IMG/VR virus record: IMGVR_UViG_3300032326_002451 | Coordinates: 46,316 to 110,315 of that record | Length of the DNA stretch: 64,000 nt | Source of the DNA: a virus | Reading direction: 5' to 3' (one strand) | Made by a program: the position numbers and the translations under genes | Notes under the pieces: generated by a model | Databases searched by the model: none | Told to the model about the DNA's origin: nothing | Seen by the model: only the letters and a program-made list of their open reading frames with translations | In this document: positions 18,656-51,130 of the stretch, piece by piece | How the letters are laid out: every line of letters starts with the position of its first letter | Position numbering within the stretch: the first letter of the stretch is position 1

Positions 18656-18957
18656 TAGACATACCTTGCATCTTCAACTTGAAAAAAACTTTTCCATGAA
18701 GATGTTACATTTCCATAAGTAAACCATGAATATTTCCACTTACCAATAACATCTATATCAAGGTCAATATAATAAATACCAGTACTTTCATTTACAATAG
18801 CTGGAGTACTTGCAGTTGTATATGTTGTATAGTTTGTTTCACCAGGTTTCTCAAGCTCAAATTGAATTGATTGAGGATTTGTCAAAATGCCATCAATATC
18901 TCTGATTCTTGCTTTAATTCTAATAGTTTGATTTGTTAAAATAACATCTGACTTCAT
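18655..18957 (-). CDS. Small Ig-like/beta virion protein
   Basis: 'ESTGIYYIDLD...GKWKYSW' pattern typical of small phage beta-sandwich proteins; TAATG-coupled. Confidence 0.5.
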   Translation of the reverse strand: MKSDVILTNQTIRIKARIRDIDGILTNPQSIQFELEKPGETNYTTYTTASTPAIVNESTGIYYIDLDIDVIGKWKYSWFTYGNVTSSWKSFFQVEDARYV

Positions 18958-32507: not shown

Positions 32508-33170
32508 TTACATTATGTGATCAGCTAATCGATGAAAGCCTAATTCGTCCAAATAAGCAGAAATTCTAACCATATTTTTGTAATGGCTGCTTGCCATTGC
32601 TCCTCCGCCAGCAGGAGCTTCTTTTGACTTTGCTTTAGAAATCCCAAAAGAAATTGCTTTGACTGCTTGCATTATATTGTCAAGTGTGACTGGAATTTCT
32701 AATGTATCGAGTGTTTTACCAGCTGGCAATCTTTTCCATCTATCGTTTCTTGTAGCTTCAATTTCTTTAGCGTCAACTTCTTTTTCAGGCAATCTTTCGC
32801 CTTTTTTCCATCCATCTATTCCGCCAAGCTTATTACCACCATACATTCTAAAAATAACATTTGCTATTTCTTCTTCAGAGGTCGATCCGACATTGGATGA
32901 AGATGAAAGTATTTCAGAAAGTTTTTTTTGTAACTCTGCATCTTTGAGTATCATTCCAAGATTTTCAAGTGGATATGGGACACCTTGAGCAGTAGTATTG
33001 TCAGTAGGACCTCCAGCTGCCCCAGCGGGAGCTGGCATTCCAGGCATTGGAGGCATAGCACCCATGCCCATATCCATAGGAGGTGGCGCAGCAGCACCTG
33101 GATCTGGTGGCGGCGCAGCAGCAGCTGCTGCTGGATCGGCTTGAGCGATTCTTAGAATTGAAGTTTTCAT
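32508..33170 (-). CDS. Hypothetical protein with RIAQ leader, P/A/M/G low-complexity segment and C-terminal LD..G...AD motif
   Basis: MKTSILRIAQ; ...MVRISAYLDELGFHRLADHIM*. Confidence 0.7.
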   Translation of the reverse strand: MKTSILRIAQADPAAAAAAPPPDPGAAAPPPMDMGMGAMPPMPGMPAPAGAAGGPTDNTTAQGVPYPLENLGMILKDAELQKKLSEILSSSSNVGSTSEEEIANVIFRMYGGNKLGGIDGWKKGERLPEKEVDAKEIEATRNDRWKRLPAGKTLDTLEIPVTLDNIMQAVKAISFGISKAKSKEAPAGGGAMASSHYKNMVRISAYLDELGFHRLADHIM

Positions 33171-33652
33171 TATCTAATTGGTGCTGAAATGAAATCTGAT
33201 CTGTGTTTGCCAGCACCAGGAGTTTTTAATGCTTCCTCAGTTTGCTGAGCATTTTCTAATTTTTGTTCAGAGTCAGGTTCATCTTTCTCTGGATCAAATT
33301 CTAAGTAACTTAGAACATCGGGATTCAATATTTCTTGTAATCCCCATTTTGATTTTGTAGATTGTGCAACTTTTCTTAAAGCTTGACCAGAGCTTAAGCC
33401 TTTGATATCAATCACATTCTCAGTATAATCATCCCACTCGTCAAGGCTTGCCATTGCTTTAAGGATAGCATCATTCATATGCGCTTGTACTGTCTTTTCG
33501 TCAAGTTTCTTTGCAAGTCTTAAATTTCTATGTGACAACCTAAACATGGAAGCAGCGTGAGCAATAATCTTATTTTGTTCTTCTCTACTAAATGCATTTT
33601 TTGGGTCAATTTCTCTTAGCAATGTATGTAGTTGCTGTTCAATATTTTGCAT
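33170..33652 (-). CDS. Hypothetical protein (contains LRLAK and RKVAQ sites)
   Basis: TAATG-coupled to downstream gene; candidate late promoter upstream. Confidence 0.65.
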   Translation of the reverse strand: MQNIEQQLHTLLREIDPKNAFSREEQNKIIAHAASMFRLSHRNLRLAKKLDEKTVQAHMNDAILKAMASLDEWDDYTENVIDIKGLSSGQALRKVAQSTKSKWGLQEILNPDVLSYLEFDPEKDEPDSEQKLENAQQTEEALKTPGAGKHRSDFISAPIR

Positions 33653-33681
33653 ATGAATACTCTCTTAAAAACCATCGTTAA

Positions 33682-33714
33682 TATTTATTTATCAACAGAA
33701 GAAGGCTTACCTTT
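33682..33714 (-). promoter_or_regulatory. Candidate phage late promoter AAAGGT-N18-AAATAAATA
   Basis: Motif match. Confidence 0.5.
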
Positions 33715-33718
33715 TATT

Positions 33719-36700
33719 TTAGTCTTCTACAGTTTTATATTCTACTTTAAACTTTATATTCCTGACTTTTCCATTTGATGTTATGTTGCTATTTGATAAG
33801 GAATCAGATGTTGGTATTTTTACAGCTATCGCAAATCTATTACTGTTAGCCGTTGAATACTTATCTATTTTTGCTGATCCAAGATAGAAAGCATTACTAT
33901 TGTCAGCTCCTAAAAGTTGCCATGTACTTGGATTAGAATTAAATAATCCATCTTTATCAACAGAAACCCATTCAATTGAATCAGTGCCTATAATGTATTC
34001 TGTAAGTTGAGCATAAGTGATAGTTCTTGGTAGTCCTAACTTGATTCTGTAAACTGTATCTTGGTTTACTGTTCCATTTACAACTTTTACAGTCAATTGA
34101 GGGTTTAATTCAGAGTCTGCATTCAAGTCTTCTGCTCTTGCCCACGCATATTCTGCACCAGTTCCAGTAACAACATAAACTCCGTTCTGAGATTTATTAC
34201 TGTCTTGATTTTTGACTAAAATTCTGTGACCTTTTTCAAGAATTACCCCATCAATAGTTGATGGAGGGCTTGAAAGATTTATATTAACATTGCTCGAAGT
34301 TGTTGCACAGTTACAGTCAGCGAGTTTATTGCTTAGATTCACCTTGGCCCAATAAATAGAGCTACTTCCTATTGTTGGAGTTGCTGTTTCATCATATACA
34401 AGAGCGTAATATCCTGTCGAGGCTAAACCAGAAGTAACATTACATTTTTTTCCGATTGATATTTCGCTCGACTCATCTAAGTTTTCATGTCTCGTAAGAT
34501 AAAAAGAAATGTTGGAGTCTGCTTTGTAGATACCATTTTGAGTGTTGTTTGTCTGACCAAGTAATAAAATCGTTTGTCCTAACGTTATTGAAGGATCAGA
34601 AAACGAAGATACTAATGAAGTATTTGAACCTATAATTTTTGTACATGAGGTGTAATTATTTATTTTATCTTGCTCAAACCAATCAATATCACTTGATCCC
34701 AAAGTTGTGCTACTTGGATCAAAATACAGCTCATAGTCTTTATTCGAGTTTAAGTCAGTCACATAACATGAAGTAATTGAAAATCCTGCAGTATTTGTAC
34801 TTCCTGACGCTAAAACTCTTGAATAAATAGGGGCAATATTTTGAGTAAATCTTCCAACATATCTTTCATTAGATGCAGCTTGAGATAGTAAAAGAACTTT
34901 ATCATTAGCAGCAAGAGTGACGCCATCAGTCGCATCTGGGTAGGCTGTTGTTAAGGCTAATCCGCTATAAACTGAAGACGAAACTGCCTTTACGTCAATA
35001 GTTTGACCGTAACCTGACTTAATCCAATTGATGGCTGTGTTTCCACTTGTTGATCCAATTGAATAGAAAGCTGATGGTAAAATTAGTTCATAAGTGGTGT
35101 TACCGTAAACTACTCTGCCTAATGATTTTAGGTCAGATGAGCTTGAAAAATCGCCACTTCTTGAAAGCTTATAAACAGGATTGCTATAAACTGAATAAAT
35201 ACCATTTTGTTTTTTATTAGTTTGGTCTTTGACGAGTATTATATCATTTATAGCTGGAGCATATGAATTAATAATCCCACCAAAGTCGCTAAAATCAGTT
35301 ATTGCTACTCCAGTTGATGTGTTGCATGAAAAGACACTTACACTTTCATATGAGTACCAAGATTTATCACCATTCACACGAGATGTATTGTTTGGATTGT
35401 AGTGTAAGAAGAACTTAGCAGCTCCATATAATACATTCAAAGGAGTTAAAGGGTTAGTGAAGTTCGTATTATATGATAAAGTGACAGGCGTGTATCCAAG
35501 ATTTGCAAATTTATAAATCTTTTGATCTCGTTTACCTGATTTATTATGCTGTATTAGATTATTTTTATCATCATAATAAGATGTCTGTATTGTAGTAGCC
35601 AAGCCTGAATCATTATTGTTAAGCAATAAGATGTTTTGATTAGCTTGTAAATTCAGACTTTGGAACCATTTGTCTATTGTAAATCCTGATCCAGAAGATA
35701 TTGCTTTCTCTAAATATACAGTACCAGTGAATAATCCTAAAGTTTCACCAGTCCCAGGCATGTAAATATTTGACTCAAAATACGATGCTGTAAATGCTGA
35801 TCCAACTTTTTTGTAATATCCATCAGAGGATTGTCTTGAAGTGTAAAAATATTCATTTACATTAGAAACTTCAATAATTCTATCAATATCTATTTTGTAT
35901 GATTTTGAATTATCGTATGCTTTGTACCAATGATTTCTGTCAGTGTTATATTTAGCTTCTGTAGTTGTGCCTAATCCAGTTGCGTTTGATATTTGGAAAT
36001 AAATATTATCAGGAGTGTATTTGTTTAGTGTTATAGCAGAACCAGAATTGATGAAGTATTTGTTATCAAGTACTTGCTCTACAGTGTAAAATCTATTGAG
36101 AAGAGATTTTGATTGCTCATTATATCTTGGTGTATCAAAATCAGAATACAAATAAACATACAAAGTGTCAGTAGATGATGTAGCAAATCCAGAGTATGGT
36201 GATATATACCCAAATTGCGGATATACATCATAATCAACTTTATTATAAAAATTAGTTTGGTTGCCTTGAGCATCTATGACAAAAACATCTAAACTTGGAT
36301 AATTATATTCATTCCAACAATATGTGTCAGATGTTCCAGCTTTAACAACGTGTATAGCAGGATCAAATATAGTATCTCCTGGAGCAATTACAAGTCTCTT
36401 ATAATGATCTATATGGCCATTGGCAACTCTTTGCTTTACACGTCTTAGATAATATGTCCATGTATTTGGGTTTATGTGAACAATTTGATAGATACCGTTG
36501 ACTTGATTTGGAAGTCCATTGTTCCAAACATCTTCATTGCTATCTTGATATATAGCTCTGTCGCCAATTTCATAGTAATAAATGACTGAAGGATCATCTA
36601 ATATTGTGTAAAGCTGCCTTCCTCTATTGACAGTTAGCATATCACCGTCAACAGTATCTTTGTTAGTCAAATCACCTGCTATGAAATGTTGGATAGGTGC

Positions 36701-39577
36701 TAAAGATGGGAAGTTAAACAAATTGTTATAGTCAATACTCAATACAACATCTGACCCAGAGGTAAAATATTCTTGTCCTAAATCGTATTGATTATCATCA
36801 TTTGGAGTTATTGCTGTAGAACCTAATGCTGATATGTTGTTAGCGTAACCTACAACACCTTTCATGTATATGACAGAGCTTCCGAATGAAGAGCCACCAA
36901 TCATATACCCGCTATCAACTAAAACTTTTGTTGGTCTTTCATACGGAGAACTTGTGATTTTTTGGTTTGTTCCAGCTAAATATTCTGTTGAAACATCAAA
37001 GTCAGTATGCTTAACAAAGTAAACACTTCCTCCAACTCCGGTCAATGTTGCTCTGTAAATACCATTGTATGAAGATGCACAAGAGTTGCCTGTTCCGATG
37101 TAAAATAGAACGTCTTCATTGTTAGAAATTAAGGTGTTATTTGAAATTTTAGTGGAAATTGCTGTTCCTGAACTGATTGGCAGTCCAGCAATTGTAGAGC
37201 TTTTGTATACAGCCTTAACTTTGTAGTTTTGATAGTCTTGAGTGTGCCAGCTAAAGTCAATTTCTTGTAAGAACGCACTACTAAGATTATCAGTTGCAAA
37301 AAAACTATTAATGTTTTCTTTGCTTGGGTAATTTATTTCAGGAACATATATGTTTGCAAATTTTGAATTGGCATAAGTTGTAGATCCATAAGCAGAAGTG
37401 TTTCTTGCGTATAGTACTCCTCCAATTTCATTTCTCATGTTTGGGGTAACTGTGAAAATATCTGTATTTGTGGATGTAATGTTTCTTAAGATATCTGCAG
37501 ACCAAGTTACAAGAGAATCAGAGTAATTGAAAACAGCCTTTTGTGGTGATGATAAAGTTGCATCATATAGGCCATTTATTTTTTTGTTAGAAGTATTAAC
37601 AAGAACTTTATCAGATGTATTTACACCTACTGAAAAATCATCCGGCGATATATAGACACTATTAAATTTATCTACCACAGTTGAAGAATCAACAGTTATT
37701 GTCGGTGCACTTGTTATATTGACAAATTCTACATCTGCAGTACCAGCTGATACATTATCTTCGTTTGAGTATAAGAAATAAGTAGCTCCAGTACCAGATG
37801 AGTTTGCAATTGAGCCATTTACAATCGAATAAAGAGAATAAAAACTCAATGCTTTAGTAGAACCTAATGCGCTACTACCAACAACATAAATACCATTTTG
37901 TGATTGTGTAGTGGTTTGATTGCTTACTAAAACTCTTTGAGAAATTGCTATACCACTATTTGCAAATTTAGAAGAATTTACGCTATTAAAATTGTTTATC
38001 TCTGAAATAGTGATGTTTGAAACTGGTTCGTAAAAATAATGTGTGAATCTATTATCAACAGAGATACCATCTAAATTTAGCACAAAATTAGCATTGTAAG
38101 TTGTTTCTCTGTTCATATAAAAATAAGAACTACCGATAGAGCTTAGGCTATTTTTAGCACTTACAATATAGGGTGTTATTTCAGCAGCTGTATCAAAATT
38201 TGCGTGTCTTTTCCAAACAGATGTATTTCCAAGCCCAACACTGAAAATATTATATACACCACTGTACGCACTATTATAATGCTTGACTAATATTTTTTCA
38301 TTTGCTACAGTTAGTGTAGTAACACCAGTTCCAGAAACAATGTGTGAAGGTGCGCTTGTAAAAGTACCAGCATTACTTCCAAAATCAAAAGTAAATGCAA
38401 TGGCACTTGTGTTTGGTATTTCGTAGTACCAATCTGCAGCATATGAGCTGTAATAATGAGTAGCATCAACCCAGTCAGAAGCTAAAGTAGTAGCAATTCC
38501 AGGCGTTGAATCTGGAATAATTACTCCACTTTCTCCTCCACCACCCTCTTCATAAGCTGTCATTGCTGTAAAGTCTGAAGTAAGATAATGGCGGTAATAT
38601 TTACCACCAAAAGTGGTCCCAGTCATGACTTGAACACTTACTGGAATTTGTTTTGTAATATTATAAACTGCAAAATCCCAGAAATTATCAATAGGGTCTG
38701 TACTTGTTCTTGTATCAACTATTGTATTTTTATTAGAAGCATATAAACTTGAAAGATAATATATGCCATTTTGAGATTTAGTAGTTTGATTTTTGACTAA
38801 AATTCTGTCATTTACTTCAAGTTCTACATTGTCAATAAAATTAGTTTGTGATGATAGTCCAGCTCCAGAAGATTGAAGATTTTCAGTCGTAGCAGCAACA
38901 ACACTATTAAGTTGATAAATATTTGCCCTACTTACCCACTTTATAGAAGTAGTTCCAGCTCCCACAAATTGAAATGGACTATAACCTGATAAATAAGAAA
39001 AATACGATGAAGCTCCAACACCAACAATTTTTCCAGCTGTGTAAATGTCTTCTCCAAGATGATATGAAAAACCTGAGCTTCCTGTTCCAGTTTTCTGAGC
39101 TAATATTTTATATAAACCATTCTCATTTTTTGTTGTTTGAGACTTAACTAAAATATTATTTCCTGAAGATATTTTGTATCCATCTATATACAAAGGAGCA
39201 ACTAATCTTTGTATGCCTCCCAAAGTTTCAAAAGACAAATTTAGATTAGTTGCTACATATGCGTTTGGCAATTGTTCGATATTGAACGTATCGAGAGGTG
39301 TGATTCTAAATTCAAATCCTAAATCTTCTGTTATAGAGACTGCATCAGAAGATTTTATGACTGGAAATTCACTTCCACCTGTGTAAATATCTGCAAATGA
39401 ATTATCTAACCAAATCTTTATATCTTCTACACTTGAGTTGATCCACTTAAGTTTAAAGATCCTTTTGCTCCATGAATTAGCCGTAGCTGTACCCATACCA
39501 GCAAAAGGAATCTCTTTATTTACTTCACTTTGTAAATCTGTAGTGCTTATTTCTGACCAAATCAGTGCGTGAGACAT
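33719..39577 (-). CDS. 1,952-aa virion structural/fibre protein with ~10-12 copies of the 'ILVKNQ...QNGIY' module
   Basis: e.g. NDRILVKNQTTKSQNGIY, NDIILVKDQTNKKQNGIY, GHRILVKNQDSNKSQNGVY...WARAEDLN. Confidence 0.75.
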   Translation of the reverse strand: MSHALIWSEISTTDLQSEVNKEIPFAGMGTATANSWSKRIFKLKWINSSVEDIKIWLDNSFADIYTGGSEFPVIKSSDAVSITEDLGFEFRITPLDTFNIEQLPNAYVATNLNLSFETLGGIQRLVAPLYIDGYKISSGNNILVKSQTTKNENGLYKILAQKTGTGSSGFSYHLGEDIYTAGKIVGVGASSYFSYLSGYSPFQFVGAGTTSIKWVSRANIYQLNSVVAATTENLQSSGAGLSSQTNFIDNVELEVNDRILVKNQTTKSQNGIYYLSSLYASNKNTIVDTRTSTDPIDNFWDFAVYNITKQIPVSVQVMTGTTFGGKYYRHYLTSDFTAMTAYEEGGGGESGVIIPDSTPGIATTLASDWVDATHYYSSYAADWYYEIPNTSAIAFTFDFGSNAGTFTSAPSHIVSGTGVTTLTVANEKILVKHYNSAYSGVYNIFSVGLGNTSVWKRHANFDTAAEITPYIVSAKNSLSSIGSSYFYMNRETTYNANFVLNLDGISVDNRFTHYFYEPVSNITISEINNFNSVNSSKFANSGIAISQRVLVSNQTTTQSQNGIYVVGSSALGSTKALSFYSLYSIVNGSIANSSGTGATYFLYSNEDNVSAGTADVEFVNITSAPTITVDSSTVVDKFNSVYISPDDFSVGVNTSDKVLVNTSNKKINGLYDATLSSPQKAVFNYSDSLVTWSADILRNITSTNTDIFTVTPNMRNEIGGVLYARNTSAYGSTTYANSKFANIYVPEINYPSKENINSFFATDNLSSAFLQEIDFSWHTQDYQNYKVKAVYKSSTIAGLPISSGTAISTKISNNTLISNNEDVLFYIGTGNSCASSYNGIYRATLTGVGGSVYFVKHTDFDVSTEYLAGTNQKITSSPYERPTKVLVDSGYMIGGSSFGSSVIYMKGVVGYANNISALGSTAITPNDDNQYDLGQEYFTSGSDVVLSIDYNNLFNFPSLAPIQHFIAGDLTNKDTVDGDMLTVNRGRQLYTILDDPSVIYYYEIGDRAIYQDSNEDVWNNGLPNQVNGIYQIVHINPNTWTYYLRRVKQRVANGHIDHYKRLVIAPGDTIFDPAIHVVKAGTSDTYCWNEYNYPSLDVFVIDAQGNQTNFYNKVDYDVYPQFGYISPYSGFATSSTDTLYVYLYSDFDTPRYNEQSKSLLNRFYTVEQVLDNKYFINSGSAITLNKYTPDNIYFQISNATGLGTTTEAKYNTDRNHWYKAYDNSKSYKIDIDRIIEVSNVNEYFYTSRQSSDGYYKKVGSAFTASYFESNIYMPGTGETLGLFTGTVYLEKAISSGSGFTIDKWFQSLNLQANQNILLLNNNDSGLATTIQTSYYDDKNNLIQHNKSGKRDQKIYKFANLGYTPVTLSYNTNFTNPLTPLNVLYGAAKFFLHYNPNNTSRVNGDKSWYSYESVSVFSCNTSTGVAITDFSDFGGIINSYAPAINDIILVKDQTNKKQNGIYSVYSNPVYKLSRSGDFSSSSDLKSLGRVVYGNTTYELILPSAFYSIGSTSGNTAINWIKSGYGQTIDVKAVSSSVYSGLALTTAYPDATDGVTLAANDKVLLLSQAASNERYVGRFTQNIAPIYSRVLASGSTNTAGFSITSCYVTDLNSNKDYELYFDPSSTTLGSSDIDWFEQDKINNYTSCTKIIGSNTSLVSSFSDPSITLGQTILLLGQTNNTQNGIYKADSNISFYLTRHENLDESSEISIGKKCNVTSGLASTGYYALVYDETATPTIGSSSIYWAKVNLSNKLADCNCATTSSNVNINLSSPPSTIDGVILEKGHRILVKNQDSNKSQNGVYVVTGTGAEYAWARAEDLNADSELNPQLTVKVVNGTVNQDTVYRIKLGLPRTITYAQLTEYIIGTDSIEWVSVDKDGLFNSNPSTWQLLGADNSNAFYLGSAKIDKYSTANSNRFAIAVKIPTSDSLSNSNITSNGKVRNIKFKVEYKTVED

Positions 39578-39595
39578 TTGTAATCCATCTGAAAT

Positions 39596-40963: not shown

Positions 40964-41005
40964 ATTTTTGGTCTCCTCGCATGGTAATAGATCTTATGAT
41001 CATAG

Positions 41006-41039
41006 TGTAAATTTCTTTTCAACAAACCAGCAGTCCTGT
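41006..41039 (-). promoter_or_regulatory. Candidate phage late promoter ACAGGA-N19-AAATTTACA
   Basis: Motif match upstream of phoH and the 1,952-aa structural gene. Confidence 0.5.
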
Positions 41040-42026: not shown

Positions 42027-42062
42027 ATTTTTTTTATAAAAGATTAATGAGAGAATCAAGAT

Positions 42063-42953
42063 ATGAATTTCCGCAAATTGGCTGAATTAGCAAAACTACA
42101 TGACGAAAAGCAAGATTATAAAATTGCTGATATGTTCACAAAAGTACTTAATAAATTTGCCCAAGAACAAACTCCTTTTGACATTACAGAAGGAGAAGAG
42201 TCAAATGACCCTAAAACTGTTTTAGATTATTTCACTGGTTTTGCTTTTGACATGATTTCAAGAAAACCAAGTATTAGCAAAGATCAAGTAAAAGCAGAAT
42301 TAGATAAAAAGATTGGCGAAAAATTAGAAAATCTGAGCAATGATGACAAAGCTAAATTATCAAACATCAAAGAAGATGTCGTTAATGAACTTGAAAAAAA
42401 TTCTTGGTACACGAAGTTATCTGATGTAAACGAAGATTATGGTCAAGCTATCGAGATTACAGGTGGACCTAAAGAGTTTTTAGAAAAACTTGGCCCAGCA
42501 GCACAGCAAGCATCTCAGAATGTTGATAATAATGTACCTGCTTCTATTATTCTTGCAATGGCTGCTTGGGAATCTGGTTGGGGTAAAAGCAAGTTGGCAT
42601 CTGAGCATGGCAATTTCTTTGGTATTAAACAAAGTCCTACATCTGGAGCATCTTCTGGAGTATCAATGGGTACTTTTGAATTTAATGGAGGCAAACATAG
42701 AGAAATTGCAGAGTTCGCAAAGTTTGAAAATGATGCTGTAGCTTCTATGTCAGCTCTTCCAAATTTCTTTACCAACAATAGAAGATACACAGATGTCTTA
42801 AGAAGAGGTGAGATGTACAAAAATGACAAATCCACTTCTAATCTATTTTCTGTTGTTGATGCAATATTTAATGCTGGATATTCTACTGATCCTGGCGAAC
42901 CTGAAAATATAAAGAAATTAATTGTTAGATATAATCTTGGTAAATACGACTAA
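42063..42953 (+). CDS. GH73 (FlgJ-like) glucosaminidase/muramidase with N-terminal leader motif
   Basis: PASIILAMAAWESGWGKS.LA...NFFGIK ... AGYSTDP; N-terminus LAELAKLHDEKQDYKIADMFTKVLNKFAQ. Confidence 0.85.
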   Translation: MNFRKLAELAKLHDEKQDYKIADMFTKVLNKFAQEQTPFDITEGEESNDPKTVLDYFTGFAFDMISRKPSISKDQVKAELDKKIGEKLENLSNDDKAKLSNIKEDVVNELEKNSWYTKLSDVNEDYGQAIEITGGPKEFLEKLGPAAQQASQNVDNNVPASIILAMAAWESGWGKSKLASEHGNFFGIKQSPTSGASSGVSMGTFEFNGGKHREIAEFAKFENDAVASMSALPNFFTNNRRYTDVLRRGEMYKNDKSTSNLFSVVDAIFNAGYSTDPGEPENIKKLIVRYNLGKYD

Positions 42954-43474
42954 TGTGGTACAAAACTGCAAAACAAAAAGTTAACACTTTTGGTTTACCA
43001 ATATCAGGAAAAAACAGATTTAAGTTGTTTGCTGATGAAGAAGAAGCGCCTCAAGAAGATTTGCCATTGGAAGACGATAATGTTGAAGAGGAAGTGGATG
43101 AGCAAGGTATTGTAATTCCACCTATTGATCCAAAACCAGAAGAAGAAGTTACAATAGATGATCCAAATAATGATGGAGAATTCACACCAGAAGATTTACA
43201 AACCAATATAAGAGCCATGGAAGAAGATCCAACTATTGGTATCAAATTGCCTAAATCTGAAAATGGCGAAGGCGAAGATTTGCATCCAAATTGTCACTGT
43301 AGAATCATCACATTGCCAATATTATCAAAAGTTGGTGTCCAAGAAGGTAGAAGAGTTTGGAAGCATTCTGAAAATTGTTGCGATAAATGTAGATTGACAG
43401 CTCAACAATTCAATCAAGCAGAAATTCAAAGATTATTGAACAAAGGTATTGATGTAAATGGTGTAGCCGCTTAG
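42953..43474 (+). CDS. Acidic protein with HPNCHC and CCxxC metal-binding motifs (gpF/gp7-like fragment)
   Basis: MWYKTA leader; LHPNCHCRI; WKHSENCCDKC. Confidence 0.65.
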   Translation: MWYKTAKQKVNTFGLPISGKNRFKLFADEEEAPQEDLPLEDDNVEEEVDEQGIVIPPIDPKPEEEVTIDDPNNDGEFTPEDLQTNIRAMEEDPTIGIKLPKSENGEGEDLHPNCHCRIITLPILSKVGVQEGRRVWKHSENCCDKCRLTAQQFNQAEIQRLLNKGIDVNGVAA

Positions 43475-44008
43475 GTCTATATCAATCTTTTTTCTTAAGA
43501 TTTTCTTTGATGGCATCTTTACATTTCTGAGCTGAGACACTAATCTTTTTTTCATATAGTAAGACAAATCAGATCTATTTATTTCTCTGATCAATATCGT
43601 TTTCAATTGCGATATTTCAAAATCAGTGTGAAGATAACTATAAAATATTTCGTTTTCCAACTTGTCTAATTGTTTTTCATAAATAGAAAATTCTTTCATT
43701 GACAAATTGTAAAAAGTATTAATCAAGTAATATCTTATAGCATTATATTTTTTGACATTTAATGTTGATATGTCAGACATTTCTTTCAAATCAAAAAGAA
43801 AATCTATATTTCCCTTAATTTGAAATAATTCTCCATTTACTTTTATCAAGTACAACGCAACAATAGCTTCATTTTCAATAATTGAAATGATTGGTTGACC
43901 AGATATCAGATTTGTTTCTTCAAGAGTCTGAATATTATTAGGATTTTTGATGCCTAACATGTGAATATCTTGTTTGTTTTGTCTAACAAAAGTCAAAAAT
44001 GCTTTCAT
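43433..44008 (-). CDS. Hypothetical protein
   Basis: 191-aa ORF, ATGA-coupled to upstream gene. Confidence 0.55.
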   Translation of the reverse strand: MKAFLTFVRQNKQDIHMLGIKNPNNIQTLEETNLISGQPIISIIENEAIVALYLIKVNGELFQIKGNIDFLFDLKEMSDISTLNVKKYNAIRYYLINTFYNLSMKEFSIYEKQLDKLENEIFYSYLHTDFEISQLKTILIREINRSDLSYYMKKRLVSQLRNVKMPSKKILRKKIDIDLSGYTIYINTFVQ

Positions 44009-44610
44009 AATACAATATTTTCAATTATGGATTTATCTTCTGAGTAATTTGTAGAATCGCCCCATAAATTGATCCAGTAGTCTTTGAGTTTATTTTTCTT
44101 TGACATTGAAGAGCAAGTATCATATATTGTTGTTTTTATTTCAGTAAGAGCAAGTAATTTTTTATGACTTGCATTACGTTCTTCATAAATCTTAAGTAAT
44201 TCTTTATTTATATGATTTTTGTTCTTAATCATGAACTCAAAAATGATATCTTGTTCAAAAGGGTTGGCTCTGATTTTATCAATAAGAAAAACATAATCAT
44301 TATGAAATGAATATAATTCTTCGTCAATCATATCAATCAATATTAGTCTTTTATTTTTGGGCATTATATAAATTTGAATAGGTGATACTTTTACTTTTCT
44401 TATATTGGTAGTGTTTAAATGTTTGAAAAAAGATATATTTTTTGAATGAAGATATGAAAAAACACTTGGGATTTCTTCTAAATTTTTGAAATAAACCCAA
44501 GGATATTCTTCTTGATCAGCCAAAAAAGCTCTCAAACTTATAAGTATTTCAACTTTGTCGTTTTGAGAGCTTTCAGTGATAATTTTTTTTAGGTCTGCTA
44601 CATTATTCAC
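44005..44610 (-). CDS. Hypothetical protein
   Basis: 201-aa ORF, GTG start. Confidence 0.55.
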   Translation of the reverse strand: MNNVADLKKIITESSQNDKVEILISLRAFLADQEEYPWVYFKNLEEIPSVFSYLHSKNISFFKHLNTTNIRKVKVSPIQIYIMPKNKRLILIDMIDEELYSFHNDYVFLIDKIRANPFEQDIIFEFMIKNKNHINKELLKIYEERNASHKKLLALTEIKTTIYDTCSSMSKKNKLKDYWINLWGDSTNYSEDKSIIENIVL

Positions 44611-44643
44611 AACGATAACTCTTAATTAAGTAAAATAGACGAA

Positions 44644-44931
44644 TTATCGTTTTTGATAGTTTTTTCCAAAAAGTTCATACACATTCTCTGAAACAATTTC
44701 TTGAAGTGTATCTTTTTTGGTATAGAGTCTTATGTTTGCAATTCCACCATATTTTTCTTCCATATGGTCTAAAACTCTTTTCACTTTTCTGTTTATTTCT
44801 AACTGAGAAGGATTGTAATTTCTTTGTTTTCTTAAAAGTCCTCTGACAGCAAATTCCGCATCCATTGCAAGTACTTTAAGTTCGTACAATGGTCTTTGTT
44901 TGTTTTCTTCTACAGCTATTCTATACCACAT
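44644..44931 (-). CDS. Small basic protein with MWYRIA leader
   Basis: N-terminus MWYRIAVE parallels MWYKTAKQ of 42953. Confidence 0.65.
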   Translation of the reverse strand: MWYRIAVEENKQRPLYELKVLAMDAEFAVRGLLRKQRNYNPSQLEINRKVKRVLDHMEEKYGGIANIRLYTKKDTLQEIVSENVYELFGKNYQKR

Positions 44932-44935
44932 ATTA

Positions 44936-45166
44936 TTAGTCTATTTTAAAATTTGTAACCAACGCTTCATTAATAACAAAAGCAACATTTTGACTTGGCA
45001 CGTTGAATAAACAACTTGTCATTTTTTCATCTTTGTAGATGATGTGAAAATCTTTATTTACTATTAACACTCCCTCTATAGTGCTAATCGAAACAGCAGG
45101 ATTGTAAGTTTGAATTTTCCACTTTCCAATTCCTCTGTTTTGAGAATTATTATCAATAACAGCCAT
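44936..45166 (-). CDS. Hypothetical protein
   Basis: AAGGGG SD; 76 aa. Confidence 0.6.
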   Translation of the reverse strand: MAVIDNNSQNRGIGKWKIQTYNPAVSISTIEGVLIVNKDFHIIYKDEKMTSCLFNVPSQNVAFVINEALVTNFKID

Positions 45167-45186
45167 TTTTAAGTCCCCTTTAGTAA

Positions 45187-45220
45187 TTGTAATTTATTGC
45201 AAAATATCCTAATTACCTTT
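45187..45220 (-). promoter_or_regulatory. Candidate phage late promoter AAAGGT-N19-AAATTACAA
   Basis: Motif match. Confidence 0.45.
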
Positions 45221-45257
45221 ATCTATATCCTTATTCTTATCCTGTATAAGTAATTTC

Positions 45258-46601
45258 ATGACAAAAAGAAAGAATCAAATTGTTTGTGTTTTTTGTGGAG
45301 ACAACGCTTCAAGACAAATAGCAGAAAAATTGGAATATTTCTCACCTAAAAACCGTGATGTTTATTTATGCGAAAAGTGTTTTAATAGTTTTTCAGCCGG
45401 GACTGTTATGGGGCAGTTCCAATTAAATAATAAAATTTTATCTTTGATTGCCTCTGTAGATGACGATGAAACAGTTACAAATTTAAAAAATAAAATTGCT
45501 GAATATGCTCCTGCTTCAAAATACTCTGTAGCAAAACAAACTATGTCCAGGGCTAAAATCGCTCCTACAGACATTTATGATTTTTTGTGCACTAATGTTA
45601 TCGGTCAAGAAAATGCAAAGAAGAAAATTTCTCTAACTGTTTATGAGCATGTCAGAAATGCTTATAAATCAGATTTAAATGACAAACATAATATTTTATT
45701 TTTAGGTCCATCTGGCAGTGGAAAAACTTTAATAGTGAATAGCATTGCTAAAAAGTTAGATGTACCATATGTTTCCACCGATGCCACTTCTTTTTCGCCT
45801 ACTGGATTTCAAGGAGCTGATGCAGATACCTGTATACACGACTTGTACTTCAAATCAGATTATGATTCAGATTTAGCTCAAAAGGGTGTAGTGTTCATAG
45901 ATGAGATAGATAAGTTAGCATCTCAGAATACAGGAACAAGATTAGAAAGTTTTAATTATTCAACTCAGAGCACCTTGTTGAAAATGATTGAAGGTAAAAA
46001 AATAAAGATACCTGCCCAGTTGACGGGTGATGCTCCTGGCCCTGTGTATGTTGATACTTCTAAAATATTGTTCTGGTTTGGTGGTGCTTTCAATGGGCTT
46101 GAGAATGTAATAGGTAAAAAACAAGGATTTTCTGGCAAATCAATTGGTTTTAGAAATAATGGTGATGAAGAATACGATATCAAAATGAGAATTTATGATA
46201 TGTATCAAAATCTTTCTCAAGATGTTTTGGCAGAAAGTTTAATCGAATATGGCCTGTCAACTGAACTTGTTGGAAGAATTCAAACTATTGTACCATTGAG
46301 GCCATTAAACAAAGAAGAATTGCTTTCATGCCTTTTGAGTCTTGCAGATAGTCCTATTAGAAAAAATAAAATCATGTTTGCAGAATCTAATTTGGAACTT
46401 GATTTTACTGAAGACTACTATGATGAAGTAATTGAGAAAGCGGTAAAAACTGGTACAGGGGTAAGAGCTTTGAATTCTATTGTTAAGTCTTCTTTGTCCA
46501 GTGCTGCTTTTCAATATTTAGGATTGCAGACAGTCAAGTCAAAGCGAATTATTATCAACAAAGATTGTGTTGATGATCCCAATAAGTTTGATGTCTTTTA
46601 A
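45258..46601 (+). CDS. clpX: ClpX-family AAA+ unfoldase
   Basis: N-terminal C4 Zn domain (CVFCG...LCEKC), VIGQENAK, GPSGSGKT, FIDEIDK, IGF loop, ELVGRI, GTGVRAL. Confidence 0.92.
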   Translation: MTKRKNQIVCVFCGDNASRQIAEKLEYFSPKNRDVYLCEKCFNSFSAGTVMGQFQLNNKILSLIASVDDDETVTNLKNKIAEYAPASKYSVAKQTMSRAKIAPTDIYDFLCTNVIGQENAKKKISLTVYEHVRNAYKSDLNDKHNILFLGPSGSGKTLIVNSIAKKLDVPYVSTDATSFSPTGFQGADADTCIHDLYFKSDYDSDLAQKGVVFIDEIDKLASQNTGTRLESFNYSTQSTLLKMIEGKKIKIPAQLTGDAPGPVYVDTSKILFWFGGAFNGLENVIGKKQGFSGKSIGFRNNGDEEYDIKMRIYDMYQNLSQDVLAESLIEYGLSTELVGRIQTIVPLRPLNKEELLSCLLSLADSPIRKNKIMFAESNLELDFTEDYYDEVIEKAVKTGTGVRALNSIVKSSLSSAAFQYLGLQTVKSKRIIINKDCVDDPNKFDVF

Positions 46602-46633
46602 AGGATTTGCCTACCTTAAATATAAAATATATA
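46600..46633 (+). promoter_or_regulatory. Candidate phage late promoter AAAGGA-N19-AAATATATA
   Basis: Identical boxes and spacing to the 17663-17696 site. Confidence 0.55.
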
Positions 46634-46636
46634 AGT

Positions 46637-47719
46637 ATGCATTATCAAAATCCCGAAAACCTAATACAACAAGCCTTGGAAATTCATAAAGAAAATACAA
46701 GGCTTGTTCGTTTAGCTGCACCACCAGCAGATTATAATTTTTGCGATCAGTGGTTTCAGCTACAAACCAATCCTGAAATGATAAGACTTAAAGCCACATT
46801 AGCTTTTATGCCAGCAAGAGGATTTGTTAGATGGTGGTCAGAGTTATATAATGCTACAGACAGAATTAGAGAAATTAGAAGTATTTTTGATACTGATATA
46901 GTGCCAAATGAAACCTTGAGAGAGTTTGGATTAGATCGAAGCTATGCTAACTTTCCCTTTGATTCCACTCATCCTAATGGCATAGACCCAGCGGTTTGGC
47001 AAAGAATAGATGACAAATTAAATTTATTGTGTCGATATTTATTTGTATGGACATTCCGTGTAGCAATGGCTGGAGATACAGCAAACTACACAAGATTTTT
47101 GAGAGACTATCCCGATCCAAATGTTTCTCAAGCACAACCACTAACACCAGAAATCAAACTTGATCAACTTATAGAAAAGAAAATACCTAATGATTTGTTA
47201 AAAGAATATAAAATTAACAAGCCAAATGCTGCGTATATAGATTCATTGCCATATATAAAAAATGAAGTAACTAAATTCTTTTTAAACTCATTTCCTTTCG
47301 ACCAAGATGGAAATATAGCCAGAAGTCATTTTTTGAAAAAAATGCCAGCCAAGCGTTTTAATTTTGATGAATATTGGAATTCATTGATGGGTATGTATTC
47401 AAATGTTGATGAAATAAGAAATGTACTTGATTCTGATGTTACTTTAGATACTTCATCAGGTGGTCCTGCTGCTTCAAAATTGAAAGAATTAGGAACAATT
47501 TCAGGATCTTCAAATGCAAATGTTGATGATATTCATGCAAAATTAGAGCAATTGATCAATTCTATCAGAGTACATGAAGTTAATAGTTTGAAAGAAAGAT
47601 GGGTGAAAATATTTGGCGGATTGTCAAAAGTTACTAAGCCATTCCTTGATGTATATCAAACATCATTAAATTTGCAAGGAGCATTAGGGTCATCTTTGAG
47701 GAGAGATAGATATGTCTAA
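46637..47719 (+). CDS. Hypothetical helical protein with RLVRLA-A leader (candidate head-internal/ejected protein)
   Basis: ATG 46637 directly after the promoter motif is preferred over TTG 46607. Confidence 0.6.
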   Translation: MHYQNPENLIQQALEIHKENTRLVRLAAPPADYNFCDQWFQLQTNPEMIRLKATLAFMPARGFVRWWSELYNATDRIREIRSIFDTDIVPNETLREFGLDRSYANFPFDSTHPNGIDPAVWQRIDDKLNLLCRYLFVWTFRVAMAGDTANYTRFLRDYPDPNVSQAQPLTPEIKLDQLIEKKIPNDLLKEYKINKPNAAYIDSLPYIKNEVTKFFLNSFPFDQDGNIARSHFLKKMPAKRFNFDEYWNSLMGMYSNVDEIRNVLDSDVTLDTSSGGPAASKLKELGTISGSSNANVDDIHAKLEQLINSIRVHEVNSLKERWVKIFGGLSKVTKPFLDVYQTSLNLQGALGSSLRRDRYV

Positions 47720-48290
47720 ATTTGTAAAAGTTGCAGCACTACCAGCAATTGATTTTTCTAAAATTGCTTTTTCAATGTTCAAGAGCTTTCCAATGATTCA
47801 AAGTGCCTTGAAAACAATGTTCCCTGGTGCAATAAACTGGTTAGATCCTATAGAAGTTACTAATAAATTTCTCCAAGCTTTACAAGATCCAGAGTTCCAA
47901 GATTTGGCTGTTACATTAGCTCAACAATTTATTTCTCATAGGGGTCAAAAATTAAACATAAATGAAAGAGATATGTTTAAGAATTACGACTACTATTATA
48001 AAACCAAAGGCACAGCACTTCCTGGTATGAGCCAAAATCTTATGCCAACTATTGGAGCTGGTGCATATCAAGCAACTACTGGCCAATTGCCAAAAAAAGA
48101 AATTGTTCCAACAAAAAGTTTCAATTCAATCATGAATGAGATCAAGGCTATCACCTCTGAAATTGGTTTTCAAACATTAGATCCAGCTGCAAAAAGAAAA
48201 ATCTTATCAAACAAAATCAGTGAATATACAAGAGAGTTAGCACCTTTCAGAGAATATCTTAAAAAGAACTTCCCAGTCTTTTCAAATTAA
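47712..48290 (+). CDS. Hypothetical protein with MSKFVKVA-A leader
   Basis: Overlaps upstream stop; GAGGAG SD. Confidence 0.65.
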   Translation: MSKFVKVAALPAIDFSKIAFSMFKSFPMIQSALKTMFPGAINWLDPIEVTNKFLQALQDPEFQDLAVTLAQQFISHRGQKLNINERDMFKNYDYYYKTKGTALPGMSQNLMPTIGAGAYQATTGQLPKKEIVPTKSFNSIMNEIKAITSEIGFQTLDPAAKRKILSNKISEYTRELAPFREYLKKNFPVFSN

Positions 48291-48294
48291 TACA

Positions 48295-48987
48295 ATGAAA
48301 ACAGATTATATAAAACTTGCACAATTTTTAGACAAAATTGGAAAATACAAACAAGCTGACAATATTGAGAAATATCTAAAAACAGCTCAATTTTCTGCTC
48401 CAACCTATCAATCTGGTGGGCCTAAAAATCCATACACAGGTTACTTAGATGCTACAGCTATGGGAAGACAACAAGCTGGATTTGGAGCTGGACTTCAACA
48501 AGGCATAGGTAGAGAATCTGGTATTGTTGGATTTTTGCCTTTGACTCCTGATCAGATGCAACAAATGACACCTCAAGATATATTCAATTATAATACTTCT
48601 TTAGGTGAACAACTTGTACAAGATGCTCAGCAATATACAGGGCCAAGTAAATTTCAACAAATTATTACTATGATTGCTCAAAGACTTCAAGCTGCAACCC
48701 CTGAAAACAAATCACAGATATATCAACAATCTTTAGAAGAGTTAATATCATCAGAGTTGAGCAATTTAGTCATGAATGGAACTCCTCAAAACTTAAATCT
48801 TAGTCTGCAAAACTTAAGAATGTTAAATTTGCCAGAAGTTTTTAGTAGAACTGTGCCTCAAGCAATTCAATTTGCTCTACAGTCAATGTCTATGGATGCA
48901 AATCCTGATGTCAAGAAAAGATATAATGATTTTGTTAATGATCCAGTTGTGAGACAATACGCACCAGGCTTTTCTCCAATCCAATAA
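48295..48987 (+). CDS. Q-rich hypothetical protein with IKLAQFLDKIGKYKQADNIEKYLKTAQ leader
   Basis: Clearest example of both leader motifs. Confidence 0.7.
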   Translation: MKTDYIKLAQFLDKIGKYKQADNIEKYLKTAQFSAPTYQSGGPKNPYTGYLDATAMGRQQAGFGAGLQQGIGRESGIVGFLPLTPDQMQQMTPQDIFNYNTSLGEQLVQDAQQYTGPSKFQQIITMIAQRLQAATPENKSQIYQQSLEELISSELSNLVMNGTPQNLNLSLQNLRMLNLPEVFSRTVPQAIQFALQSMSMDANPDVKKRYNDFVNDPVVRQYAPGFSPIQ

Positions 48988-49003
48988 TCAGTATAAATAG
49001 TGT

Positions 49004-49789
49004 ATGACTGAAAAATGCCCTGTTTATCTTGGAAATAATTGCGTATTAAAATCTTTATTTACAAAACAATTTAATTCTAAAATATTTAGTGTTGAATTAA
49101 ATCAATTAGAAGAAAGATATCCATCTAATTGTGAAGGTTTAATATCTAAATGCTGCTTTGCAAAACAAGAAGAAATTCAAGAACATAAAACAGAATCTGA
49201 TTCAAAAGAAACTGTTGAAGAAGTAGCTGAAGAAGTAGCTGAAGAAGTTGTTGAAGAATCACCAAAAGTAAAAGTTAGCATTCACCAGATAGAAAATCCA
49301 TATTTGGTAAAGGCTGATGTCTTAGTTTATCCATCAAATAATGTCCTTACTATTGATGACGCATTATTAAATAGATTGTCATATGGAAAAATACAACAAG
49401 AATGTGACAAAATTAAAAAACCAATTAATATGGGCTCTGTCTATACAACTTCAAATGGTGGGGAAAATTCAAAAGTACAAGCAAAAAAAGTTTACCATGC
49501 TGTTGTAGCTGGCGAATCAAGACTTGTAAATGAAGCTGATATCAAGCTTGCAATTAGAAAAGCTTTACATTTAGCTAACGAATCTAAAGTTCGTAATATT
49601 GTAATGCTGCCGCCTGATTGTGGAACTCATGATATTCAAGATGCTGCAAGGGTTCATCTATCCTCTATTTTAACTTTTATGCAGTCTGAGAAACATATTT
49701 CTTTTAAGAATATTTTCATTGTGATGGAAGACAAGGAATCTTATGATGTCTACAATGAATATTATAAAAGAGTCTTTAAAAGTAGGTGA
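49004..49789 (+). CDS. Macrodomain protein (degenerate) with Cys-rich N-terminus and acidic linker
   Basis: ADVLVYPSN, IQQEC, GSVYTT, AKKVYHAV, RKALHLA, NIVMLP..CGT; lacks GGGV loop. Confidence 0.75.
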   Translation: MTEKCPVYLGNNCVLKSLFTKQFNSKIFSVELNQLEERYPSNCEGLISKCCFAKQEEIQEHKTESDSKETVEEVAEEVAEEVVEESPKVKVSIHQIENPYLVKADVLVYPSNNVLTIDDALLNRLSYGKIQQECDKIKKPINMGSVYTTSNGGENSKVQAKKVYHAVVAGESRLVNEADIKLAIRKALHLANESKVRNIVMLPPDCGTHDIQDAARVHLSSILTFMQSEKHISFKNIFIVMEDKESYDVYNEYYKRVFKSR

Positions 49790-49793
49790 GAGC

Positions 49794-50138
49794 ATGGATA
49801 TAGTGAATGATTTTAAGAATCCATCAAACTTATTGGTAGCATTTTTAGACAGCATAAACAAGCCCTTATGTATTATAGATGATAACGGTAATGCATTGTT
49901 GAATAATCAAGCTAAAGAGTTAAAAAACAGGGGATTTGACATAGATCTTCATTCAAGTAAGATAAAGAAAAATACCACTGCTACTGTCCTACATAAAGGC
50001 ACAAAATATTGTATTGAAAAAAAAGATATCAATCATGGAACAAATAGTTGTGTTTGTACTGTGAGCGAAGAAGATGAAACTATTGCAAGACTGACTGAAT
50101 CTTCTAAAAAATTAAAAAAAGTTCTAAGCGTTTTGTAA
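49794..50138 (+). CDS. PAS-like small protein
   Basis: 'FLDSINKPLCIIDDNG..LLNNQA' typical PAS N-terminal pattern; AGGTGAG SD before 49794. Confidence 0.5.
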   Translation: MDIVNDFKNPSNLLVAFLDSINKPLCIIDDNGNALLNNQAKELKNRGFDIDLHSSKIKKNTTATVLHKGTKYCIEKKDINHGTNSCVCTVSEEDETIARLTESSKKLKKVLSVL

Positions 50139-50160
50139 ATTCTTCTGAAGGGGGTTTATC

Positions 50161-50616
50161 ATGGAAGAAAACGAAATTGGTATAGAACAACTTAAAACTG
50201 TGTACAAAGCACAGACAGAGGCATATTTGGAATTCAATATGGCCTTGATAAATATTCTTTCAAACCAGAAAGAAATTCTCACGAAAGTCGAATCATTAAA
50301 GATTATTTCTGAAGATGAATTCAGAAACTTATCACAAGAATATCATGCTCTTGAAAAATTATTTGTGAATTTTCAAAATAGTCAAGTGCTTAGAGATGAA
50401 TCGTTAGAAGGAACTACTGACGATTTTAAAGCTACCATTACTAATTTCAATGAAGATATTAACTCATTGAAAACAGAAGTTAAGAAGCTTACTTCAATGC
50501 ACTGGGACATCAAAAACTCATGGAATAAATTGGCTTGGACAGTTGGTGGAATTTTAGCTTTTCTAACAGCATTACAAGTTGTAACCGGCAAGGGCTTGAT
50601 TGATATATTTAGATAA
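50161..50616 (+). CDS. Coiled-coil protein with C-terminal membrane anchor (XhlA/holin-like architecture)
   Basis: Heptad-rich body then WNKLAWTVGGILAFLTALQVV; AAGGGGG SD. Confidence 0.55.
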   Translation: MEENEIGIEQLKTVYKAQTEAYLEFNMALINILSNQKEILTKVESLKIISEDEFRNLSQEYHALEKLFVNFQNSQVLRDESLEGTTDDFKATITNFNEDINSLKTEVKKLTSMHWDIKNSWNKLAWTVGGILAFLTALQVVTGKGLIDIFR

Positions 50617-50846
50617 TGCCAACAATAGCTTGTTTGTGTGATAAATGCGGAAAGAGTTTTTATATGAAAGATGAAATGTATCATCCAGCAGCTAAAAACC
50701 CTTTCCGTATGACTAAAAAACAAAAAGAAATTCCAAATACATGGGAAGATTGGATTTTGCATGTCTCATCTAATTGTGAAGAATGTAGATTGCCATACAC
50801 CCCTTCAAGTTGTTTGAAAGATTTGGATAAATTAAGAGGAGGCTAA
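50616..50846 (+). CDS. Small Cys-rich (Zn-binding) protein
   Basis: CLCDKC, CEEC; TAATG-coupled. Confidence 0.55.
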   Translation: MPTIACLCDKCGKSFYMKDEMYHPAAKNPFRMTKKQKEIPNTWEDWILHVSSNCEECRLPYTPSSCLKDLDKLRGG

Positions 50847-51130
50847 GACATATCTGGATGAGACAAATTCTCTTCAAAGCTATTAATGATGCTTCTCAAA
50901 GTTTCGGCGCTTAAACTGCCATTATTATCAAACTTTATATTGTTGTGTTGAGCAAGATCTAAAAATATTCCACCAATAAACTCATTCATTATTTGTTCTG
51001 TATTTATATTAGATTTTGGCTCTTCTTTTGATTCCATGGGTATCTCTGATAAAATATCATCAGCTTCATTTTCCAAGCCCATATCTATCAATTCTTTGGC
51101 TATTTTGATCAAAGCTATTGTATTCATCAT
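50843..51130 (-). CDS. Small protein with LIKIAKELIDMGLENEADDI leader motif
   Basis: Matches the helical-hairpin motif of 48295/42063/32508. Confidence 0.65.
   Translation of the reverse strand: MMNTIALIKIAKELIDMGLENEADDILSEIPMESKEEPKSNINTEQIMNEFIGGIFLDLAQHNNIKFDNNGSLSAETLRSIINSFEENLSHPDMS

Follow-up and report, generated by a model that had tools for sequence, protein, structure and literature searches.

Why do proteins that are otherwise unrelated begin, within one phage genome, with nearly the same few residues? This question is raised by a 64,000-bp stretch of viral DNA (the window, by which the whole analysed stretch is meant), which covers positions 46316-110315 of a 110,315-bp virus contig (IMG/VR record IMGVR_UViG_3300032326_002451, G000; ~32% GC, CheckV completeness 31%). 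Two motifs recur in its open reading frames (ORFs): motif A, a helical hairpin of ~34 amino acids (aa) that resembles a tetratricopeptide repeat (TPR), and motif B, a short tag centred on a basic residue and a following Ala or Ser. The original prediction, drawn from the window alone, had claimed that these motifs form a modular leader by which proteins are directed into the phage head and trimmed there. In the reading favoured here, to which we assign a probability of roughly 0.5, motif B would be the recognition site and most likely the cleavage site of the prohead serine protease of this clade, and the hairpin would act as a docking leader. The motifs, their modularity and conservation, the fold of the protease, and the motif conserved in protease and portal are observed here.

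The comparisons were made with a syntenic relative (IMGVR_UViG_3300032245_001860, G001; 316 kb, 88% complete, whole record taken) and with 80 clade loci that were gathered with the major capsid protein (MCP) as bait, on contigs of up to 488 kb and with MCP identities from 100 down to 57%. Coordinates are given in window numbering unless stated. The phage is very divergent, and the majority of its proteins have no PHROG or Pfam family.

Motif B has the consensus hydrophobic-hydrophobic-[KR]-hydrophobic-[AS], with Q, A, K or S next, and motif A the consensus xLxKhAxxLDxxGxxxxADxhxxhh[KR]hA (h, hydrophobic). About a tenth of the phage proteins begin with the short tag or the hairpin leader. Each genome has ~30-40 tagged proteins, of which the majority belong to no known family. 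The peptides listed in the original prediction are all present at the positions given for them, and the copies in the window, together with one neighbouring gene that bears on their interpretation, are as follows:

48295-48390, plus strand: N-terminal hairpin leader, residues 1-32 (MKTDYIKLAQ...YLKTAQ), of a 230-aa protein (gene 48295-48987).
42063-42164, plus strand: N-terminal hairpin leader, residues 1-34 (...VLNKFAQ), of a GH73 glucosaminidase/muramidase (gene 42063-42953).
51041-51127, minus strand: weak N-terminal hairpin, residues 2-30, with the spacing KIAxxLxxxGxxxxADxI, of a 95-aa protein (gene 50843-51130).
32511-32588, minus strand: C-terminal hairpin, residues 195-220, MVRISAYLDELGFHRLADHIM, of a 220-aa protein (gene 32508-33170); kept in the orthologue of the syntenic relative.
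33141-33170, minus strand: 10-aa N-terminal tag MKTSILRIAQ of the same 220-aa protein (gene 32508-33170), followed by a Pro/Ala-rich linker.
42953-42973, plus strand: short tag MWYKTAK of a 173-aa Cys-rich protein (gene 42953-43474); identical in the syntenic relative.
44911-44931, minus strand: short tag MWYRIAV of a 95-aa protein (gene 44644-44931).
46637-46717, plus strand: conserved 27-aa leader, ending RLVRLA, of a 360-aa protein.
47712-47738, plus strand: tag MSKFVKVAA of a 192-aa protein (gene 47712-48290).
9095-9115, plus strand: tag MFVKTSQ, residues 9-15, of a trypsin-like S1 protease (gene 9071-9739).
45258-46601, plus strand: phage ClpX homologue, with three tagged genes immediately downstream in the same orientation.

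The claim that a modular leader is carried by unrelated cargo was upheld, since the leaders are fixed, the cargo evolves fast, and a disordered linker follows the leader. The leader of the 48295 protein is nearly invariant in 15 homologues down to 44% identity, and an indel lies directly after AQ. An AlphaFold2 (AF2) model of this protein contains helices at residues 3-14 and 18-32, disorder at 33-84 and, at 85-230, a helical domain predicted with confidence, which was matched by Foldseek to generic helical repeats only. In a four-way alignment of the 46637 protein, whose true start is the ATG at 46637 and not the TTG at 46607, 70% of the first 30 columns are invariant versus 20-40% elsewhere, and an indel is found directly after RLA. 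MSKFVK[VI]AA of the 47712 protein is invariant in 4 relatives and gives way to a variable stretch with an indel. In two relatives at ~50% identity (L054 and L055), the tagged 46637, 47712 and 48295 proteins are 48-68% identical and their neighbours 77-93%. A targeting signal would be expected to show just this pattern, a fixed address on fast-changing cargo. At 46637-48987 (plus strand), the three tagged genes in a row form a local hot spot of fast protein evolution.

The cargo, where it could be assigned, is of several kinds. Pfam Glucosaminidase covers residues 145-292 of the GH73 protein and Pfam Trypsin_2 residues 52-193 of the 9071 protein, whose orthologue in the relative carries the tag KLVKTSQ; the orthologue of the 32508 protein begins with MKTVIKRIAQ. 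Tagged proteins of the relative include a GH108 protein with PG_binding_3, a NUDIX protein with HAD_SAK_2 and two PcfJ-like proteins, and searches of PHROGs and Pfam returned nothing for most tagged proteins. In the GH108 lysozyme of the relative (42976-43938 of that genome; L007:2976-3938, minus strand), the N-terminal hairpin is followed by a hydrophobic stretch, FLKALPLAVGIGTLGNVV, which could be a membrane or signal-anchor segment. Two of the copies first proposed fared less well: the 50843 hairpin lacks the closing [KR]x[AS] motif, and RKVA-Q of the 33170 protein is internal (residues 92-97), unremarkable and unsupported as a member of the system.

Enrichment of motif B within the first 40 residues, relative to shuffled proteins, had been set beforehand as a check. 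With the loose pattern of the original prediction, [KR]x[AS][QAKV], there is no excess overall (103 versus 99 in shuffled proteins) and a weaker one in the first 40 residues (19 versus 10.8, reached in 1 of 300 shuffles). In sharper form the motif is strongly concentrated in this region, its consensus being enriched about 4-fold. [KR][IVLFTM][AS]Q was observed 6 times in the source contig versus 0.52 expected (0/300 shuffles) and 14 times in the relative versus 2.3 expected (z 7.6), and [FWYLIVM]{2}[KR][ITVLFM][AS] 35 times in the relative versus 8.3 expected (z 9.6); the null for the relative shuffled only the first 45 residues and so preserved N-terminal composition, and the z values are inflated because the patterns were defined post hoc. 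After removal of the hairpin-bearing proteins, z was still 4.7-5.8 for both patterns, and in Bacillus phage G, an AT-rich control, it was below 1 for both. In 79 related loci, near, middle and far subclades gave z values of 11.7, 8.0 and 14.7, with counts inflated by shared ancestry; the near relatives have starts of the MWY[KR]hA type and the far clade members start with MKI[IYLFW][KR][TIL][AS]. N-terminal enrichment in three independent data sets, together with the negative control of phage G, thus supports the reading of motif B as a protease site.

The position and coding of the tags are also informative. Twelve of the 35 copies in the first 40 residues start at residues 1-4. Nine proteins of the relative start with M(S)WY[KR]x[AS] by pattern search, and a tenth, MWYRKV, was recognized by eye, where a rough estimate from composition expects ~0.02. 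Independent genomes and the M(x)WY[KR] starts make a chance origin unlikely despite the post hoc patterns. Codons and upstream DNA vary between the copies, from which it follows that selection acts on the protein. The late-type promoter with which the tags had been associated did not survive comparison: AGG-N19-AAAT occurs 3-5 times upstream of 308 genes of the relative versus 3-4.6 times in shuffles and is not enriched.

A protease that might read such a site was found in the head module of the relative, which comprises (in the coordinates of that genome) the terminase at 119776-121893, the portal at 130575-132917, a 1405-aa protein at 133072-137289 and the MCP at 139757-140611; the protease gene was read there and is not in the 110-kb fragment that holds the window. 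The N-terminal ~250 residues of the 1405-aa protein are the prohead protease (PHROG head maturation protease, E 3e-16), fused to a tail of ~1100 residues. Its similarity to phage G gp19 is significant (E 2.7e-29), and at least 95% of 63 protease sequences, gp19 among them, retain His126 and Ser177. The AF2 fold, with a predicted local distance difference test (pLDDT) score of 83, is closest to T4 gp21 (Z 10.0, root-mean-square deviation 2.5 Å over 129 aa) and then to herpesvirus proteases (Z 7-8.8), and phmmer found no match to the protease in the PDB. The presence in the phage of a prohead protease of the T4 gp21/herpes assemblin fold, which supports the earlier interpretation, rests on gp19 homology, the conserved His and Ser, and the fold match. 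Pfam models of Peptidase_S77, Gp23, Phage_capsid and CLP_protease had no match in either genome, and the protease and the MCP were identified through phage G homology after these models had missed both.

The portal is 30% identical to phage G gp14, and the 284-aa MCP matches phage G gp27 at E 1.2e-92, with about half of the alignment identical by eye. Based on the similarity of portal, MCP and protease, the phage is placed in a phage G-related lineage of huge phages, as had been guessed at the outset, and the window is part of a roughly 350-kb huge phage that is, by this homology, a distant relative of Bacillus phage G. A blastn search with the window region 42063-50000 found no match among GenBank phages. 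Membership in the bS21 phage group was considered and rejected, as bS21 was not found.

The motif is present in the protease itself. Among ~60 distinct N-termini of the protease from diverged relatives, two elements persist in sequence that is otherwise unalignable and of low pLDDT: the tag at residues 1-8 (MYKVAKGG, MIYKTANL, MAFYKTATT, MLIKTATH and others), and h-[KR]-T-A-[SAG] directly before the catalytic domain (MLKTASS, IIKTASV, MMRTASG, QIKTAST), at a position where phage G gp19 has LVKTAA. In nearer relatives, CLRTAQ...AIKLAQ with a Gly-rich linker comes directly after the protease domain. Along the 1405-aa protein there are ten motif columns, about seven of them in addition to these three sites, and in each column 60-93% of 28 aligned relatives carry the motif. 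The strict form was counted 6 times versus 0.63 expected (0/1000 shuffles), a density among the highest of the proteins of at least 400 aa. The highest density of the relaxed motif is found in the product of the next gene (533 aa). In the portal, SLASAI[RK]T[AS]A is kept near residue 12 and is followed by variable sequence. A small portal-adjacent protein (130051-130566 of the relative, with homologues in L057-L097; 93-188 aa) has an invariant MWY[KR] start, then xGGG and a hypervariable body. Among the core head proteins, in which the tag was expected, the picture is mixed: it is conserved at 10 columns of the protease fusion, in the portal and in two proteins encoded nearby, and no canonical site was found in the 284-aa MCP. 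A motif conserved at about ten positions of the assembly region fused to the protease, in combination with a tagged portal, is by analogy with T4, phiKZ and SPN3US (PMC5694885) the signature of a maturation cleavage consensus.

Motif A was traced by profile searches. A profile built from orthologues of the 48295 protein alone matched the N-termini of other, unrelated proteins of the relative (E 9.5e-9, 1.4e-5 and 1.3e-3). A leave-one-out test, in which each family was removed in turn from the hairpin profile and then rescored, gave E values of 1.3e-7 for 48295, 3.3e-6 for 42063, 0.0025 for the 32508 C-terminus and 0.2 (weak) for 50843, so that the hairpin is indeed common to unrelated ORFs, with the 50843 copy as its weak member. 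The profile scan that the original prediction had suggested found, with one iteration, 28 copies in the source contig and the relative. Most are N-terminal, five are C-terminal and two internal, the C-terminal ones including the 32508 protein and three paralogues of ~900-1000 aa. Because hairpins occur also at C-termini and internally, the hairpin is probably a docking or interaction module and more than an N-terminal propeptide alone. The three paralogues (997, 909 and 905 aa) lie in tandem at 34141-42563 of the relative (loci L006/L007), and each terminates with a hairpin (VKVAQKLDxKKKYxLADKxT...); a role as hubs, or as partners of the hairpins at N-termini, is possible for them.

A search of 1.84 billion representative proteins with the hairpin profile gave 960 matches at E<=1e-3. 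Part of these are true cellular TPR_12-like repeats, on which basis the unit can be described as a single TPR-like hairpin; the profile cross-matches repeats of the NNLAxVLDxQGKYxEAE type, and AF2 predicts two helices. Many other metagenomic matches are small phage-type proteins that open with a near-fixed MNKRQIIASLNKIANELDNSGLY.EAN.IT.VM.[KR][LI]A, continue with an acidic linker and end in unrelated, mostly ORFan cargo; in 86 metagenomic hairpin proteins searched with Pfam, nearly all cargo was ORFan, and some of the metagenomic relatives carry 2-3 hairpin copies per protein. The hairpin proteins of the two genomes carry single copies, with no tandem arrays of 3 or more units. No Pfam TPR model had an above-threshold match to the hairpin proteins, and no Pfam family or solved PDB structure was found to cover the unit, the PDB profile search having matched designed helical repeat proteins only. 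The profile had no match in phage G, tblastn of a leader had none among GenBank phages, and the ESM Atlas returned one unnamed viral cluster and nothing else. No description of a combined hairpin and tag system was found among the papers searched. Part of motif B is the end of hairpin helix B, at the Ala position of the TPR, which does not explain the stand-alone tags of 6-10 residues.

How the two motifs might work together can be outlined as follows. Proteins tagged near the N-terminus would become part of the prohead core and be trimmed there by the prohead protease. The set inside the prohead would comprise the protease-scaffold fusion, the portal, small head-module proteins and ~30 others, and among its cargo would be a protease, cell-wall hydrolases and enzymes of the NUDIX-HAD and PcfJ-like types. 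In the long leaders, where the tag closes the hairpin and a disordered linker leads to the cargo, the hairpin may dock the cargo to the scaffold or to a core component, and the leader may be clipped off after docking, as with the T4 capsid targeting sequence (CTS). The cut would fall after Ala/Ser or after the following Gln, and the tagged cargo might be packaged or ejected.

Several observations weigh against this outline. The absence of a canonical site from the MCP and the post hoc definition of the patterns have been mentioned, as have the hairpins at C-terminal and internal positions. Within hairpins, the Ala of [KR]-x-Ala is also the usual structural Ala of TPR helix B, which means that some copies of the motif need not be protease sites. 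Many of the tagged genes are located away from the main structural block, some of them with topoisomerase, PhoH and ClpX genes as neighbours, and phage G shares the protease and LVKTAA but lacks proteome-wide tagging. The clade is uncultivated and is known here from its sequences.

Other explanations have to be weighed against these findings. That the motifs reflect chance or composition, through Lys/Ile-rich N-termini of an AT-rich genome or miscalled gene starts, could draw on the loose pattern, which shows no overall enrichment, and on the refinement of the patterns after the data had been seen. Such an origin is highly improbable and was refuted by the composition-preserving null (z 7.6-9.6), by the likewise AT-rich phage G (z below 1) and by replication in the 79 related loci; moreover, codons vary between the copies and orthologue alignments confirmed the gene starts. 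A functional alternative is suggested by the gene at 45258. Its product matches solved ClpX structures at E 3.9e-54, and the alignment contains the Walker A/B motifs, an IGF loop, a GFQG pore-1 loop and an N-terminal CxxC...CxxC. The N-terminal tag might then be a degron, recognized by the phage ClpX with host ClpP for timed turnover or unfolding, while the hairpin is a separate interaction module. In favour of this, a ClpX with an intact, ClpP-docking IGF loop and a zinc-finger N-domain adjoins three tagged genes, 12 of the 35 tag copies in the first 40 residues, or about a third, start at residues 1-4, and the Escherichia coli ClpX N-motif-1 degrons TNTAKI, STAKL, TIKV and NTLKV resemble h-h-[KR]-h (PMC9775585, table 2); by eye, many tags agree with the N-motif-1 pattern (polar-T/h-h-basic-h, placed in the first ~10 residues). 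However, the motif has conserved copies inside the protease fusion and 25-45 residues away from N-termini, N-motif 1 does not include the Ala/Ser that is strongly conserved behind the basic residue, and the tag on head proteins is left unexplained. ClpP was not found in the source contig or in the 88%-complete relative, so the phage ClpX presumably uses host ClpP or acts alone. Phage G, for its part, has both ClpX and ClpP (PMC12484599) yet shows no enrichment of the tag. We consider the degron explanation unlikely.

The hairpin and tag might instead be interaction modules that are never cleaved, the single TPR-like hairpins pairing with each other or with a hub to form, without proteolysis, a body of several proteins that lies within the capsid or outside it. 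This agrees with the match of the hairpin profile to genuine TPR_12-type repeats, with the designed helical repeat proteins as the only PDB matches, and with the occurrence of hairpins at N-terminal, C-terminal and internal positions and in 2-3 copies per protein in metagenomic relatives; the three paralogues of ~900-1000 aa that end in a hairpin could serve as hubs. What it does not account for are the stand-alone tags of 6-7 residues, the clustering of tags at residues 1-2, and the ten conserved copies in flexible segments of the protease-scaffold fusion, and we regard it as possible but doubtful. Recognition and probable cleavage of motif B by the prohead protease remains the reading that we prefer.

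Taken further, this preferred reading leads to a broader proposal, which is offered tentatively. A two-part address code, readable from sequence, may extend across this clade of uncultivated huge phages, in which a hairpin docks to the protease-scaffold core and a site of new specificity (basic P3, Ala/Ser P1) is cut; the list of tags would then be a catalogue of proteins that are packed in the head and co-injected with the DNA. If this is true, sequence would suffice to tell which proteins a large group of uncultivated huge phages injects or carries inside the head, and the catalogue would include cell-wall hydrolases and candidate counter-defence enzymes (NUDIX-HAD, PcfJ-like), with a cargo that is diversifying fast. 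The system would also add a new substrate specificity to those of the gp21/assemblin protease fold, and its leader, like the T4 CTS, could be transferred to foreign proteins in order to load them into large capsids.

Some other features of these genomes were noted. A protein of ~1120 aa, encoded at 167172-170531 of the relative (16574-19948 of the source contig in its own numbering, outside the window), starts with MFQKISA, continues with a Pro/Thr-rich linker and has 7 relaxed motif copies. At 33719-39577 (minus strand) of the window, a 1952-aa protein has repeated Ig-like matches to 'head decoration / tail fiber' PHROGs near its C-terminus; its gene is co-oriented with two small genes (33170 and 32508) and with downstream genes of topoisomerase II subunits. 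A giant, internally repetitive ORF runs open-ended off the contig end at 56149-64000 (plus strand) and is a homologue of a 2440-aa protein of the relative, with 96% identity over the first 1245 aa. The impression that the last 8 kb of the window are free of ORFs was rejected as an artefact of open-ended ORFs missing from the ORF list.

Among known systems, the T4 CTS, carried by IPI-III and Alt, is one of the nearest parallels. The internal proteins of T4 have a 10-aa leader, MKTYQEFIAE, which is cut by gp21 (PMC8442874). In both phages a short N-terminal leader of ~10 residues stands on unrelated cargo and ends in a protease consensus, or in what may be one here; MKTDYIKLAQ and MKTSILRIAQ match MKTYQEFIAE in length, in the M-K-T start and in the Ala at position 9 (PMC8442874), and the phage protease has the gp21 fold. 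The differences are that the phage site has no Glu, P3 being basic and the putative P1 being Ala or Ser, that about 10% of the proteome is tagged here versus a handful of proteins in T4, that many phage leaders carry an extra TPR-like hairpin, and that Pfam Peptidase_S77 does not match. Cleavage after Glu (L/I-x-E or A/S/G-x-E) does not describe the phage tag, in which Glu is not conserved; if the system works as prohead-protease cleavage, the specificity would therefore be new.

Propeptides are removed from the head and ejection proteins of SPN3US and phiKZ at a protease consensus, and this consensus recurs in the portal and in the protease itself (PMC5694885). These phages and 201phi2-1 resemble the present one as giant phages with many head-internal proteins (candidates in the present phage) that carry propeptides, with the consensus in portal and protease and with extra sites inside long propeptides (PMC5694885). 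They differ in that their sites are A/S/G-x-E and the phage site is without Glu, that the present phage belongs to an unrelated lineage (phage G-like MCP and portal), and that its protease is fused to an extension of ~1100 residues.

Herpesvirus assemblin cleaves its release and maturation sites between Ala and Ser, and the putative P1 of the phage is likewise Ala, often with Ser next (K-T-A-S). In the herpesvirus assemblin-scaffold fusion (UL26), too, a protease of this fold stands at the N-terminus and a long assembly region at the C-terminus (PMC4498786), and a conserved site lies directly after the protease domain, here AIKLAQ with the Gly-rich linker. The register and the P3 residue differ, and herpesviruses do not tag dozens of cargo proteins. 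In the helix-turn-helix coat-binding domain of P22 scaffolding protein and in the cargo-loading peptides of encapsulins and microcompartments, a small helical element with a flexible linker delivers cargo into a shell; there is no sequence similarity to these elements, and the hairpin here is TPR-like, with a docking partner that is only proposed. The ClpX N-motif-1 degrons of lambda O, Dps and sigma S share the hydrophobic-hydrophobic-basic-hydrophobic order at the extreme N-terminus (PMC9775585), and a ClpX gene is adjacent here, whereas N-motif 1 has no counterpart of the conserved Ala/Ser or the aromatic pair, nor of the internal copies and the head-protein link. Relative to the known CTS and propeptide systems, the phage system would differ in the chemistry of its site, in the hairpin added to the leader and in the unusually large number of tagged proteins.

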